A stretch of 14,200 bases of DNA from the IMG/VR virus record IMGVR_UViG_2778261543_000011, one strand, 5' to 3'. Positions 1 through 6,748 of this stretch are shown here, one piece after another (position 1 is the first letter of the stretch; every line of letters begins with the position of its first letter). The stretch comes from a virus. Lineage: Duplodnaviria; Heunggongvirae; Uroviricota; Caudoviricetes. The notes beneath the pieces are model-generated. The model saw only the letters and a list, made by a program, of their open reading frames with translations. It had not been told where the DNA came from and did no database searches. Position numbers and translations under genes: made by a program.

Positions 1-750
1 TCAGTCAATTGTTTTGTTTATTCCATCTGTGACGCCGATTATTTTCTCAAAATAATGAGATGGCGTGACACCATAATAATCTTTAAATGCACATATGAAA
101 TATGAAGTACTGTTATAGCCACATTTCTGGGCTACGACATTGATAGAATAAGAGTTTGAAGTTATGAGTTTTTTTGCATACCTCATCCTAGTATCTCTCA
201 ATATTTCAGTAAATGACGTTCCTTCATCCCTTAATCTTTTTTTTATTAAACTTTCACTCGTATAAATCAATTCCGCAATATCTTTTAAATGCCATTGCCG
301 CTCAATATTAAAACTGATTATTCCAGTAATTTTACAGGTAAATGTATTTATATTTGTTAGTATAAAAGAATTTACACTTTCGCGTTTTTTGAACATGGCA
401 AGTAAGGATATACATAGTCTTTCTTTTAACCAAAGGGAGTGTGAGTCTGCTATTTTAATCCCTTCAAACAGAGAAAAAACAAGCGATAATGGAGGTTCCT
501 CTTCAGCAATATAGCCATTCTTATCAAGAGTAAATTTGCCAGGCAGCTCATTATTCACGTCGATAAAAAAGGATAAACAAGTTTTCTTATCTATATCAAC
601 AATTCTTAGTTTAGAGGGGCATACTGGTAACTCCCTTCTAATTTTGTCGCTTACAATAAACAATGAATTTTTTTTGAACGAGATAACTCTCCTGTTTATA
701 ATTAAATCAAATGATTGACAGATGAAAACTACGGAGCAAACATAATCCAT
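1..750 (-). CDS. appY: AraC-family transcriptional activator AppY
   Basis: Complete 249-aa ORF (stop at 1-3). C-terminal AraC-type HTH ([47 protein letters not shown]). N-terminus [21 protein letters not shown] matches my recollection of E. coli AppY. Gene and the ~600 bp upstream are very AT-rich. Confidence 0.85.
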
Positions 751-1320
751 CTTGCACCTATCATAAAATTAAAACAAGTTGATAGCAGTCAAATAACAAC
801 CAATTAAATACACAATCATAATCAGGATGATGTGCATTTATATTTTTATACACAAAATTATAGTTTGCAAATTTTAATAAATTTCATTTAAGATTAAATT
901 ATTATATGTATATTGTTTTTTATTCTAACGTATTTCAAAGTTACATTTTTCAACGCTTACTATACTTTTTATTAACATAAACTCACTACAACGCACCTGA
1001 AACCTCTTGCTATATATATGTCAACCGTTTGAATTTAAAATAAAAAGAGTATCATTTTTACTTGCATTTCTTATCAAGTCACATTCAACAACAGTAAAAA
1101 AACATTATTAGAACCATTCAATTAACAAAAAAACCAACATCCAGCTTGCTTAATTTTTCTTTATTAAACGATATTGAAAATCAATTGATAAAATACATCT
1201 AAACAACCTTTTGGGGCGCAAAAGCATAACATCAAACAAATAACACACCGAAAAAACTCACAATTAATAATCTATGATATACATACTGTTTATTATGGTT
1301 GAATAAGCCACTCGATATCT

Positions 1321-1553
1321 GGTGCTACGGAAGTGTCCACACGGTTTAGCAGCACCCGATACTTTTTTCAGGCTTCCAGCAACGATCTTTCTTCCTCCGT
1401 TGCGATTTCCAGATCTACAGCATCCTGCAGTGGCGCAATATACTCACTGAATTCCTGGATGTAGAACTGTGTGGTGACGGTCTTCCAGCTATTCGGCTCC
1501 TGCTGTATTGAAGCATACCAGGCTATTTCAATATCGCTATGCTGCGGCAGCAT
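1321..1553 (-). pseudogene. tfaX: tail fiber assembly protein remnant (TfaX-like), frameshifted
   Basis: 61-aa ORF (1368-1553) ends ...[29 protein letters not shown]. The intact tfa at 4064-4639 continues ...[20 protein letters not shown] at 1340-1450 is about 90% identical to 4111-4220, and a 1-bp difference (gaagcctgaaaaaag vs gaagcatggaaaaag) creates the stop. Confidence 0.55.
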
Positions 1554-1609: not shown

Positions 1610-2278
1610 ATGGTGAAATTAATGAAAAAAAACACAGATGATGGGGCTAAAATTTACACACCACTTACCCTAAAGCTTTATGACTGGTGGGTTTTGGGAG
1701 TATCAAATCGGCTTGCATGGGGATGTCCTACAAAGGAACACCTTCTTCCACACTTTCTGGAACATTTAGGTAACAACCATCTGGATATTGGTGTTGGAAC
1801 TGGGTTTTACCTTACTCACGTACCTGAGAGTAGTCTGATATCTTTAATGGATTTGAACGAAGCTAGCCTGAACGCGGCATCTACAAGGGCTGGGGAATCA
1901 AAAATTAAACATAAAATTAACCATGATGTTTTTGAACCTTATCCCGCGGCGTTACATGGTCAATTTGATTCCATTTCCATGTTTTACCTTCTTCACTGCC
2001 TGCCTGGAAATATATCTACAAAAAGCTGTGTAATACGCAATGCGGCGCAGGCCTTAACTGACGATGGAACTCTATACGGAGCCACAATTCTTGGCGATGG
2101 AGTTGTGCACAATAGCTTCGGTCAAAAACTGATGCGCATTTACAATCAGAAAGGCATCTTTTCAAACACAAAAGATTCCGAAGAAGGCTTAACACATATA
2201 CTCTCAGAGCATTTCGAGAATGTTAAAACCAAGGTTCAAGGTACTGTAGTAATGTTTTCCGCTTCAGGGAAAAAATAG
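1610..2278 (+). CDS. ybcY: class I SAM-dependent methyltransferase (YbcY-like)
   Basis: 222-aa ORF with SAM-binding motif I (HLDIGVGTGFY) and a downstream acidic residue (LMDLNE). Sits between tfaX-like remnant and appY as ybcY does in DLP12. True start may be the internal Met (MKKNTDD). Confidence 0.65.
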   Translation: MVKLMKKNTDDGAKIYTPLTLKLYDWWVLGVSNRLAWGCPTKEHLLPHFLEHLGNNHLDIGVGTGFYLTHVPESSLISLMDLNEASLNAASTRAGESKIKHKINHDVFEPYPAALHGQFDSISMFYLLHCLPGNISTKSCVIRNAAQALTDDGTLYGATILGDGVVHNSFGQKLMRIYNQKGIFSNTKDSEEGLTHILSEHFENVKTKVQGTVVMFSASGKK

Positions 2279-2825: not shown

Positions 2826-3059
2826 ATGAAATCAAAAGACACCCTAAAGTGGTTCCCTGCGCAGCTTCCTGAAGTAAGAATTATCCTAGGGGATGCTGTA
2901 GTGGAAGTAGCAAAACAGGGAAGACCTATCAATACCAGAACATTGCTTGATTACATTGAAGGAAACATAAAGAAAAAATCATGGCTGGATAACAAAGAAT
3001 TATTACAAACAGCGATATCAGTTCTTAAAGACAACCAAAATTTAAATGGTAAAATGTAA
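2826..3059 (+). CDS. ydfK: prophage small protein, YdfK/YnaE-like (77 aa)
   Basis: ORF track gives 2793-3059, but the in-frame ATG at 2826 is preceded by AAGGA (2813-2817) at good SD spacing. MKSKDTLKWFPAQLPEVRIILGDAVVEV... matches my recollection of the Qin/Rac paralogs YdfK/YnaE, which also sit beside pin genes. Confidence 0.55.
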   Translation: MKSKDTLKWFPAQLPEVRIILGDAVVEVAKQGRPINTRTLLDYIEGNIKKKSWLDNKELLQTAISVLKDNQNLNGKM

Positions 3060-3375
3060 TATAATAAACTTACTTTTTTATCATTTTTCCACTTTAACAA
3101 CATTTTGCTCCACTTTTCCACGACCAAACAACTTGAAATCTGGTTAAAATAACACGCAACACTATTCTTCTTCCTTGAGTCCGCCCGGAACTCGAAAAAC
3201 AAACCGAGTTAAAGCCATTTTTCACAAAATCGATTTTGGGTCTCACCAAAATTACGGGGTTGCATACGCATTCGTTTATTTTCGAACGTGTACATACAAA
3301 TATGCACAAAAATAATCATAATTATTTTCTGAGATGCATTATGATATGAACACCAATTTCGTATAGAGTCTCACT

Positions 3376-3966
3376 ATGTCTCAAATTTTTGCTTACTGTC
3401 GGATATCAACGCTGGATCAGACCACCGAAAATCAACGCCGGGAAATCGAAAGTGCAGGTTTTAAAATCAAACCTCAGCAAATAATCGAAGAACACATTAG
3501 CGGCTCAGCAGCAACCAGTGAGCGTCCTGGTTTTAACCGGTTGCTTGCTCGCCTGAAATGTGGTGATCAATTGATTGTGACAAAACTGGATCGCCTTGGT
3601 TGTAATGCAATGGATATCAGGAAAACAGTGGAACAACTGACCGAAACAGGTATCAGAGTGCATTGCTTAGCATTGGGGGGCATTGACCTGACCAGTCCAA
3701 CAGGAAAAATGATGATGCAAGTAATTTCAGCAGTCGCTGAATTTGAACGAGACCTTTTACTTGAACGCACTCATTCCGGGATAGTAAGAGCCCGCGGCGC
3801 AGGGAAACGTTTTGGTCGACCACCTGTGTTAAATGAAGAACAGAAACAGGCGGTATTCGAACGAATTAAGTCAGGTGTAAGTATAAGTGCCATTGCCCGG
3901 GAATTCAAAACCTCGCGGCAAACCATTTTAAGAGCCAAAGCAAAACTTCAGACACCTGACATATAA
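3376..3966 (+). CDS. pin: DNA invertase, Pin/Gin/Hin-family small serine recombinase
   Basis: 196-aa ORF. N-terminal resolvase catalytic domain with serine motif ([12 protein letters not shown]), conserved [12 protein letters not shown] and [18 protein letters not shown]-terminal HTH ([20 protein letters not shown]). Neighbours (ydfK-like upstream, converging tfa) resemble the Qin pinQ context. Confidence 0.85.
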
Positions 3967-4063
3967 AAAATAATCTCGGTGTGAGATGCTTTACGTCTTC
4001 CAAGCCCCCTTCCTTGCCGTAAATGGAAAGATACATCTAATTATAGAATTTATATGTTTTACC

Positions 4064-4639
4064 CTACGGCAGTGCTGGCCATTCAATATCCTGTGCAGTT
4101 GACGTATCAACACGGTTCAGCAATACCCGATACTTTTTCCATGCTTCCAGCAACGAGATTTCTTCCTCCGTTGCAATTTCCAGATCTGCAGCATCCTGAA
4201 GCGGCGCAATATGCTCACTGGCTACCTGCATCAGGTTGTTTTTTGTTTCTTCCGCCTCCCGGATCCGGAACAGTTTTTCTGCTTCCGTATCCTTCACCCA
4301 GGCTGTGCCGTTCCACTTCTGAAACTCCCCTTCCGGCGATAACCAGGTAACATTTTTCGGTAACGGACCGAGTTCAGAAATAAATAACGCGTCGCCGGAA
4401 GCCACGTCATAAACCGTTTTACCCCGATGATCTTCAACGAGATGCCACGATGCCTCATCACTGTTGAAAACAGCCACAAAGCCAGCAGGAATATCTGGTG
4501 GTGCAATATCGGTACTGTTTGCTGGCAGACCTGTATGAGGCGGAATATATGCGTCACCTTCACCAATAAATTCATTAGTTCCGGCCAGCAGATTATAAAT
4601 TTTTATGGTCCGTGGTTGTTCACTCATTCTGAATGCCAT
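4064..4639 (-). CDS. tfa: tail fiber assembly protein (Tfa)
   Basis: 191-aa ORF with conserved Tfa C-terminal module ([38 protein letters not shown]). Start codon overlaps the stop of the upstream tail-fiber fragment (TAATG). Confidence 0.8.
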
Positions 4640-4959
4640 TATGCAAGCCTCACAATATAGTTAAATGCGATGTTTTTGACGGTGTTTTCCGCGTTACCAG
4701 CAGCGTTAACGGTGATGGTGTGTCCATGTGAACCAATCGCAACGGAGTGCGTATGAGCACCAATACCGACAGTATGCGCGTGTGCACCTGCAGATGCTGC
4801 TGTGCCGGACAGTGAATGGCTATGATTACCATCTGTACTGGTATTCGCTAACCACCCCGTAGACATACCTACTGAGCCTTGTACACCCGTTGTTAACTTA
4901 TCCATGGATTTCATAACCCCACCTCGCAGACAAAGCGGGTGTAAATTGAGGGAATACAA
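4639..4959 (-). pseudogene. stf: side tail fiber protein, C-terminal fragment only (5'-truncated)
   Basis: About 90-106 aa with Gly/Ser-rich and HxH repeat motifs (GNHSHSLSG...[27 protein letters not shown]) typical of tail-fiber distal tips. No N-terminal shaft domain in any frame upstream. Internal Met at 4914 (MKSMDKL) is preceded by GAGGTG. Confidence 0.6.
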
Positions 4960-5040
4960 CGTATCGCAAAAAAGCAGAAACGTAACAGACTCGGAGTCAG
5001 TGAATAACTCAGGTATTGGGTTATCAGCTAATATCGAGAC

Positions 5041-5075
5041 TCAAAAAATGGAAAAACCCGCTCGACGGCGGGTTT
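5041..5075 (-). terminator. putative intrinsic terminator (minus strand)
   Basis: 8-bp stem aaacccgc/gcgggttt (5054-5075, 6-nt loop); on the minus strand it is followed by TTCCATTTTTTGA. Confidence 0.4.
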
Positions 5076-5503
5076 AAGCTGTGTGACGAAGTAACCACTC
5101 TTAACAGCATAACCAATTTTTTACGTACGTAAACCACAAAATGATATTTGCGAGAATGCTACCGAGTATTGAAAACACCACTACAAATACATAAGCAAAT
5201 CTCAACAAATAACCAACAAATAATTTCCAGTGTTATTTTTAGCCGATTTAAATTGAACCTTCAAATTACAGAGCACTTATAAATAACAGCCGTTAATATA
5301 AATTGGCTAATAGATTTATTTTTATTCAGCCAAGATCCATGAATAGGATTCGATAGAAAAAAGTTCAGATAAAAATAGAGATCTACTTCACAAATCAAAC
5401 GAGAAACCAAAACTTACATCTTGAAATAATCACATTGATTAGATGAATATTTATCGCGCAGTGACATCATTTTTTAATAATAGTTCAAAAAAAAGGGCTC
5501 ACG

Positions 5504-6586: not shown

Positions 6587-6748
6587 TTTGATTACTAAAA
6601 GATATGTTGCGGGAGGCTTTGCCTCCCCAACATATAAGTGGCTCCCTCAAGCCACTTCCTTTAGGAGCACAACCTTGCTTCTAACTATATAAACCTTCTG
6701 TTATATATTACCCTTTATTTTTGGGGGCGTTGCAACGCCCCATTTTTA
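6587..6748 (+). ncRNA. ipeX: ipeX-like structured 3'UTR of the porin gene
   Basis: About 160 nt between the porin stop and a terminator, with two further stem-loops (6602-6636, 6636-6657). From memory, ipeX is described as lying between the nmpC stop and its terminator in DLP12 and phage PA-2. Confidence 0.4.
6724..6747 (+). terminator. rho-independent terminator
   Basis: Perfect 18-bp palindrome GGGGCGTTGCAACGCCCC (6724-6741) followed by ATTTTT. Confidence 0.6.

Follow-up and report, generated by a model that had tools for sequence, protein, structure and literature searches.

A pinQ-type recombinase gene and the palindromes upstream of it in an Escherichia coli prophage remnant: a probable decaying resolvase-type module

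We analysed a pinQ-type recombinase gene, together with a cluster of palindromic CAAAAT/ATTTTG motifs upstream of it, in a 14,200-nucleotide stretch of tailed-phage DNA (IMG/VR record IMGVR_UViG_2778261543_000011), which in its whole length is called the window here. The window is an exact match to a stretch of the Escherichia coli PSS-07 chromosome and covers a prophage remnant at the DLP12 position, flanked by appY and ybcK/emrE. Its genes follow in the order appY (minus strand), a tfa pseudogene fragment, an S-adenosylmethionine (SAM) methyltransferase gene, ynaM, ydfK, the recombinase gene, tfa (minus strand), a 3' fragment of stf and an nmpC/ompC-like porin gene (Table 1). A preliminary description made from the sequence alone had taken the recombinase for an orphaned Pin invertase, encoded by an intact gene on which tfa and a tail-fibre fragment converge, and had suggested that a 14-bp palindrome and an overlapping ATTTTGG-N6-CCAAAAT element upstream of the gene might be a relic crossover site or a binding site. 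Direct reading, domain searches and RefSeq annotation bore out these features as such. The same description had found no pair of inverted sites bracketing a segment, and our search agrees with it: the best inverted pair around pin, tfa and the stf fragment (3133-3166 and 5219-5252) matches at 74% over 34 nt, which does not set it above 24 other chance-grade pairs; the right arm is peculiar to the deletion junction of this strain.

Table 1. Features in and around the recombinase locus, in window coordinates; half-site scores are in bits on the model built from the recombinase family.
Feature	Position	Strand	Basis or score
SAM methyltransferase gene (ybcY-like)	1610-2278		about 1.1 kb upstream of pin
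ydfK cold-shock gene	2826-3059	+	annotation; upstream neighbour, accompanies pin in phages and prophages
Three CAAAAT/ATTTTG motifs (forward, reverse, forward)	3222-3252		includes ATTTTGG-N6-CCAAAAT (ATTTTGGGTCTCACCAAAAT) at 3233-3252
Perfect 14-bp palindrome CAAAATCGATTTTG	3225-3238		read directly
Relic of res site I (crossover site, 12+2+12 bp) CATACGCATTCGTTTATTTTCGAACG	3263-3288	+	13/26 matches to family consensus TGTCCGAAACCGACCGGTTTCGTACA
Half-site I left			window -0.1, family median 11.4
Half-site I right			window 6.5-6.8, family median 15.8
Predicted sigma-70 promoter TGTACA-16-AATAAT	3289-3316	+	promoter scan
Relic of res site II (32 bp) TGCACAAAAATAATCATAATTATTTTCTGAGA	3303-3334	+	20/32 matches to family consensus
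Half-site II left			window 4-5, family median 14.7
Half-site II right			window -2.7, family median 15.8
TATGAT, homologue of family TATAAT -10 element	3340-3345	+	family alignment and consensus
Relic of res site III (two direct half-sites) TATGAACACCAATTTCGTATA	3345-3365	+	15/21 matches to consensus
Half-site III a			window 2.4, family median 11.2
Half-site III b	3356-3365		window 10-11, family median 13.3
pinQ-type small serine recombinase gene, 196 aa, intact	3376-3966	+	Resolvase and HTH_7 domains
Codon 76, TGT (Cys), at position of conserved catalytic Arg (Tn3/gamma-delta R71)	3601-3603	+
tfa (tail fibre assembly), converges on pin	4064-4639	-	Caudo_TAP domain, E 7e-43; RefSeq annotation
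stf (side tail fibre) 3' fragment, without N-terminus, converges on pin	4639-4845 (to 4959)	-	RefSeq pseudogene annotation

The window protein is 100% identical to PinQ of E. coli K-12 (b1545), and the 181 nt upstream of its gene are identical to those upstream of K-12 pinQ. PinQ shares only 36-38% identity with the invertases Gin, Cin and PinE, compared to 58-84% identity with recombinases of plasmids and genomic islands. These closer relatives number in the thousands and come from plasmids and islands in Enterobacterales, Vibrio, Shewanella and Burkholderiales, some of them annotated as resolvase; relatives at E<=1e-40 were present in 1,868 plasmid records, mostly at 60-84% identity, and the recombinase of pEA29, encoded near parA/parG, is 72% identical to PinQ. 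The recognition-helix residues, RQTILR, are the same in the phage and plasmid lineages. Among Protein Data Bank entries the best sequence match of PinQ is Gin (E 1.6e-29), and its similarity to the Tn3 and gamma-delta resolvases is low (phmmer E ~1e-22), weaker than that to Gin. The Din-family invertases themselves are functionally interchangeable and have about 60-70% mutual protein identity.

K-12 PinQ and PinR, in prophages Qin and Rac, have the same neighbourhood as the window gene (ynaM/ynfT, ydfK, pin, tfa, stf). The window module differs from them in its position, in a DLP12-position remnant flanked by appY and the nmpC-like porin gene, as well as in its stf, which is cut to a 3' fragment where other genomes carry a full 3.4-kb stf. 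The gene is also found in the plaque-forming lambdoid phages Tritos, Kati, mEp460 and 2H10; in Tritos the ydfK-pin pair has the single stf-tfa set on one side and attP/int on the other, and in Kati the pair adjoins tfa. The pin gene and its upstream region are mosaic: a variant that we call haplotype B (L016, L090) differs from the window by 0.7% in the gene and by 10% upstream of it, and recombinant alleles joining the plasmid type to the phage type were found. In one locus, L175, and in proteins P0004-P0008, a plasmid-type N-terminal half with Arg76 is joined to a PinQ-type C-terminal half, and in L175 haplotype-B upstream sequence switches to plasmid-type sequence inside the site II relic described below. 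These natural recombinants indicate that plasmid and prophage copies exchange sequence.

We took upstream DNA from 80 loci of the recombinase family, aligned the 65 with at least three half-site matches, and used 63 of these to build a half-site model. Such matches, three or more, stand upstream of the gene in 65 of 74 diverse loci. Most relatives carry a very regular array of about 115 bp, made up of six TGT(C/A)CGAAA half-sites, directly 5' of the gene, overlapping its promoter and lying within about 125 nt of the start codon. Site I has the consensus TGTCCGAAACCG-AC-CGGTTTCGTACA (12+2+12 bp, arms inverted) and is separated by a variable spacer of about 12 nt from site II (TGTCCGAAAGTnAGTGnAATTnATTTCGTACA, 32 bp, arms inverted); a TATAAT -10 element lies between sites II and III, and site III (TTCGTACATCCATTTCGTACA) consists of two half-sites in the same orientation. 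The model gives about 1.5-2 bits per half-site column and almost none in the spacer columns, and this pattern is the signature of protein-binding sites. In pEA29 exactly one cluster of strong half-sites is present in 28 kb.

This architecture is that of the res site of Tn3-type resolvases. Such systems carry one res per replicon, directly repeated copies of which recombine in a dimer or cointegrate, and an inverted partner site would therefore not be expected; invertases do not work with a single site of this kind. The family shares with Tn3 and gamma-delta a small serine recombinase with a C-terminal helix-turn-helix, an array of similar length immediately before the gene, in which three dimer sites differ in arm spacing and the promoter is enclosed, and a single array per replicon; its half-site motif resembles the motifs TGTCTGATA and TGTACCTTA bound by the Tn3 DNA-binding domain. 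The res of Tn3 itself comprises 114 bp and three dimer sites (PMC9943657). Differences from Tn3/gamma-delta are that the half-sites of site III are direct rather than inverted, that site I measures 26 bp rather than 28, and that the two loci whose open reading frames (ORFs) were listed have no linked ORF of the size of a Tn3 transposase. No transposase-size ORF adjoins the gene in L021, L049 or the plasmid loci, and the family looks stand-alone, like plasmid resolution systems. From this analogy we infer that the family array is a res. A literature search with the half-site strings returned no relevant match. Three Erwinia loci (L018, L045, L049) carry mirrored extra half-sites, inverted copies of sites II and III between -191 and -129 from the start codon, giving the layout III'-II'-I-II-III, and most of the other ~60 loci are without a strong extra half-site nearby.

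A relic of this array lies upstream of the window gene. In a MAFFT alignment with L007, the closest plasmid relative (84% protein identity), and with the prophage variants, the spacer from about 3188 to the ATG is homologous, and from site I to the ATG the register is free of gaps except for a 2-nt difference near the start codon. Of the six half-sites, only III b remains strong in the window and two others are weak (Table 1). Conservation of the array drops stepwise, from the canonical array of L007 through an intermediate haplotype B, whose left arm of site I is better kept (CATCCGAATT, 5.0 bits), to the window as the lowest, so the array appears to have decayed in steps. No further copy of the site I relic turned up in the window, and phage Tritos, covered over its complete 46 kb, carries a single relic. 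A relic recombination site thus seems to lie upstream of pin, as had been suspected; it would be of the res type, at 3263-3365, and is neither the palindrome nor a Din-type site. The identical spacer between ydfK and pinQ of K-12 holds a genomic SELEX (systematic evolution of ligands by exponential enrichment) peak of RNA polymerase sigma-70, a promoter predicted with the same hexamers as in the window, and a marked H-NS site (Shimada et al.; PMC3946193).

The recombinase has changed at its active site as well. HMMER alignments to Gin and to the gamma-delta and Tn3 resolvase chains place kldrlgC of PinQ against kldrlgR, so that Cys76 takes the position of the conserved arginine. The window protein retains Y7, R9, S11 and R73, and E39 replaces D36 throughout the family; of the Tn3-type catalytic set (Y6, R8, S10, D36, R68, R71) it is the equivalent of R71 that is lost to Cys76. 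Arginine is present at position 76 in the plasmid relatives shown and in plasmid/phage hybrids (encoded by CGT in L007 and L008), and cysteine is present throughout the PinQ/R lineage and in a second prophage lineage that is only 84% identical. To our knowledge, a catalytic arginine at the Tn3 R71 position is common to all characterised small serine recombinases. In Tn3, recombination is abolished by mutation at any of six residues, R71 among them, and the substitutions R71A and R71K gave no recombination and about 1000-fold lower cleavage (PMC2794168). The ratio of nonsynonymous to synonymous substitution rates (dN/dS) comes to 0.375 when the two Cys76 lineages are compared and to 0.134 relative to the plasmid type, values that would fit a constraint that is relaxed and not absent. 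Cys76 is awkward for the published claim that PinQ itself catalyses inversion: Kirigo et al. reported that overproduced PinQ drives the e14 P segment to invert at pix sites; in the same work neither Qin nor Rac showed inversions, and a pinE mutant was fixed in a single orientation (PMC12529663).

Located 11 bp upstream of the relic of site I, the palindrome cluster falls outside the array that the family conserves, in an A/T-rich spacer specific to the lineage. Perfect palindromes of at least 14 bp number six in the window against 1.2 expected, and dinucleotide shuffles contain at least one in 72% of cases; a triple cluster of some hexamer within 28 bp, the hexamer not being picked after the fact, arises in 38% of shuffles. 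By these measures the palindrome is at chance level. On the family half-site model the three motifs of the cluster score -3.2, -0.7 and -2.7 bits, where the family has its median at 13.3 and its 5th percentile at 6.4. Among 31 distinct upstream variants of the PinQ/R lineage the cluster is not conserved in excess of its surroundings (variability 0.18, against 0.17-0.29 in the flanks), and the outer pair of the palindrome varies, with C or A at 3225 and G, T or A at 3238. The homologous stretch of L007, the nearest plasmid relative, is not palindromic, and neither the palindrome nor the cluster has a second copy in the window or in complete phage Tritos.

Among 5,426 E. coli genomes the spacer is matched in 2,996 records and is contiguous in 2,778 of these. 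The partial matches listed, an evenly spaced sample of the ranking, are plasmid-type homologues or insertion sequence (IS) events, and none breaks at the palindrome; one that stops close by, at 3211 (H181), proved to be an IS1 insertion. A small ORF across the spacer, called in phage Kati, was judged spurious, since by eye there is no third-position bias between the two haplotypes. A DnaA-box-like sequence, TTTTTCACA, is present at 3218-3226; by our own estimate the relaxed consensus would be matched exactly about twice per window.

Taken together, these data lead us to read the region 3263-3966 as a decaying resolvase-type module and not as an orphaned tail-fibre invertase, with a probability of roughly 0.6. 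The ancestor would have been a small serine recombinase of a plasmid or island with a Tn3-type res upstream; in a lineage of lambdoid phages the module would have come to lie beside ydfK, between the tail-fibre genes and attP, where the array eroded. The pEA29 system, which we compare as plasmid multimer resolution, has the canonical array upstream, parA/parG nearby and a homologous SAM methyltransferase gene near the recombinase gene, as in the window; the window copy differs in residing on a prophage that has no obvious need for multimer resolution, and in that its site and active site have degenerated. Resolution at the window site is probably lost or very weak. PinQ may still bind the half-site that survives between the promoter and the start codon, and this could give autorepression as in Tn3-type systems; whatever activity PinQ has in trans may also remain. 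The gene is an orphan insofar as it has no partner sites in cis, which would follow from resolvase-type systems having one site, here decaying; its reading as a Din-family invertase whose invertible segment was lost is not supported. The palindrome cluster is most likely not a recombination site, and is probably incidental A/T-rich spacer sequence, or at most a weak or uncharacterised binding site, for example of a nucleoid protein.

Several observations weigh against this reading, some concerning the module and others the palindrome. The gene is intact and near-identical in thousands of genomes and in plaque-forming phages, which points to some retained function; the PinQ-driven inversion of e14, if direct, would mean that PinQ is catalytically active despite Cys76 (PMC12529663); and the label res for the family array draws on architecture and analogy with Tn3. 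As to the palindrome, its core AAAATCGATTTT is unchanged in all 31 variants, and a symmetric change, C3225A/G3238T, keeps the 14-bp palindrome in some copies of haplotype B; an invariant core with a symmetric change is what a constrained binding site would look like. A triple cluster of CAAAAT, with this hexamer chosen beforehand, occurs in only 0.3% of shuffles, the choice being in fact post hoc. Finally, the extra dimer site of the three Erwinia loci stands at the palindrome's distance upstream of site I and offers a precedent for a fourth site.

The points on the palindrome also favour the best-surviving alternative, in which the cluster is a working protein-binding site or operator for the pin promoter, either a fourth accessory site to which PinQ binds with relaxed specificity or a site for a nucleoid protein or transcription factor of the host, for example H-NS. 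To them may be added that the cluster lies about 50-65 bp upstream of the -35 element of a SELEX-supported promoter and that the identical K-12 spacer holds an H-NS SELEX site. However, the resolution of SELEX is too coarse to place H-NS on the palindrome, and its fit to the high-affinity H-NS motif tCGATAAATT is poor, about 6/10 by our own count against the published template and without the central T-A step found in all listed sites (PMC2094087). Binding by PinQ is countered by half-site scores below 0 bits and by a recognition helix that is the same in the phage and plasmid lineages. Polymorphism at 3238 shows that the complete palindrome has not been kept, and the cluster is not conserved above its flanks. 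We also considered C3225A/G3238T (L016, L090) as a compensatory change, and the covariation signal is weak, with G, T and A all found at 3238 on the same background among the 31 variants. We therefore regard an operator as rather unlikely.

A very unlikely alternative is that the palindrome is a new crossover site of the PinQ/R lineage that replaced site I and serves recombination between prophages such as Rac, Qin and DLP12. The polarity of its arms is that of family site I, it adjoins the relics of the accessory sites, and with up to six copies of the spacer per E. coli genome there would be possible partners. However, its hexamers are spaced by 4 bp where the family has a constant 8, its central CG is symmetric, it has no half-site match and the catalytic arginine is missing; moreover, the spacer is contiguous in most genomes, no listed partial match breaks at 3231/3232, and the inversions in the literature are confined to e14.

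Slighter still is the chance that an invertible tail-fibre segment was lost and left the palindrome behind as a degenerate Din-family (hix/gix/cix/pix) site; a degenerate site had been suggested in the preliminary description. An A-tract resemblance (TTTTCACAAAAT versus TTATCAAAAACC) is superficial. Din systems, such as Gin/gix, Cin/cix, PinE/pix and Hin/hix, do resemble the window in having a small serine recombinase beside phage tail-fibre genes, a gix site lies upstream of gin in Mu, and the spacer between gixR and gin of Mu shares a 10-mer, TCGATTTTGG, with the window. This 10-mer extends no further and is equalled in 5 of 200 shuffles, and it is the only, chance-level, similarity of the pin upstream region to those of Mu gin, e14 pinE and P1 cin. 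For a formal model of Din sites we took gixL/R, cixL/R and pixL/R from the Mu, P1 and e14 sequences and added hix. Seven of the eight known sites scored 25-30 bits and hixR 14.8, whereas the palindrome scored -3.1 bits and ranked 53 in the window, so that it has no significant match to the known sites and the reading as a Din-type relic is refuted. No Din-type site was found in the window, where the best score was 4.5 bits compared to a mean maximum of 8.6 in random windows.

The layout is likewise not that of a Din system. These have two 26-bp sites (12+2+12, consensus about TTATCNNAAACC) inverted around a segment, an arrangement absent from the window. Their invertible segment contains an alternative tail-fibre C-terminus with its assembly gene in the opposite orientation, and a Fis-dependent enhancer lies in or close to the invertase gene; in P1 the enhancer is annotated inside cin. 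A single stf-tfa set is present in the window, in other prophages and in the complete phages Tritos and Kati, with no invertible segment. Because the functional phages that carry the gene have no second, inverted tail-fibre set, the pin locus does not have a G- or C-segment layout. PinQ further differs from the Din invertases in its low identity to them, in its recognition helix and in the replacement of the catalytic arginine by cysteine.

Least probable of all is an RNA hairpin or terminator ending the ydfK transcript: the palindrome does follow the ydfK stop codon by 166 nt, on that gene's strand, but the fold of -9.3 kcal/mol is ordinary (z-score -0.31, with 71 of 200 shuffles folding at least as well), the stem is A-U only with no U-tract after it, and no terminator-like site was found in 2950-4100.

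Several further features of the window were recorded. The stf gene is truncated at about 4846-5500, with similarity to most other genomes ending near 4888; the phage morphogenesis region is wholly deleted, and the stf stump is fused to the region upstream of the nmpC/ompC-like porin gene, most of this junction being common to only two of the 5,426 genomes. A second tfa pseudogene fragment (tfaX-like, 1293-1460, minus strand) is oriented like the intact tfa, and the two form direct partial repeats that bracket the block from the methyltransferase gene through ynaM and ydfK to pin. The window methyltransferase is 53% identical to that of pEA29 (L009, 4915-5574), which is encoded directly downstream of the related recombinase gene, and a neighbourhood of recombinase and methyltransferase is thus found on both plasmid and prophage.

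Other repeats and palindromes are present as well. Within the pin coding sequence, GCATTG occurs three times as direct repeats within 28 bp (3660-3687), probably as a by-product of a conserved peptide. Two adjacent imperfect 20-bp palindromes (TTTACCTGATTCAGGTAAA and TTTACCTCTTTCAGGTAAA) lie at 13937-13974, in a lambda-like early region near a DUF1382 gene, and make up one of the few hexamer clusters of the window that exceed the shuffles. A perfect palindrome, TTTACGTACGTAAA, is found at 5120-5133 upstream of the porin gene, and a G+C-rich perfect 18-mer palindrome, GGGGCGTTGCAACGCCCC, at 6724-6741, about 140 nt past the porin stop codon.

For the palindrome itself the result is deflationary. 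For the proteins, PinQ and PinR are annotated, and have recently been published, as DNA invertases, and have been proposed as the first recombinase-activated anti-phage system. Beside Cys76 and a resolvase-type recognition helix, the pinE result would be compatible with an indirect effect of PinQ on e14 inversion. We tentatively suggest, as a possibility that we hold well short of even odds, that PinQ and PinR are no invertases but descend from a plasmid resolvase, with arginine changed to cysteine at Tn3 R71 and an eroded res, and are kept in lambdoid phages as DNA-binding regulators or architectural partners, and that e14 inversion is indirect and PinE-dependent, which would fit the published pinE mutant locked in one orientation (PMC12529663). 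The res-associated relatives, the decayed upstream res and the missing catalytic arginine change the experiments that are needed to interpret the invertase and anti-phage claim. For a recombinase family common on enterobacterial plasmids and in Burkholderiales genomes, the analysis further yields a res consensus that is widespread and apparently undescribed and that would be useful for annotation.

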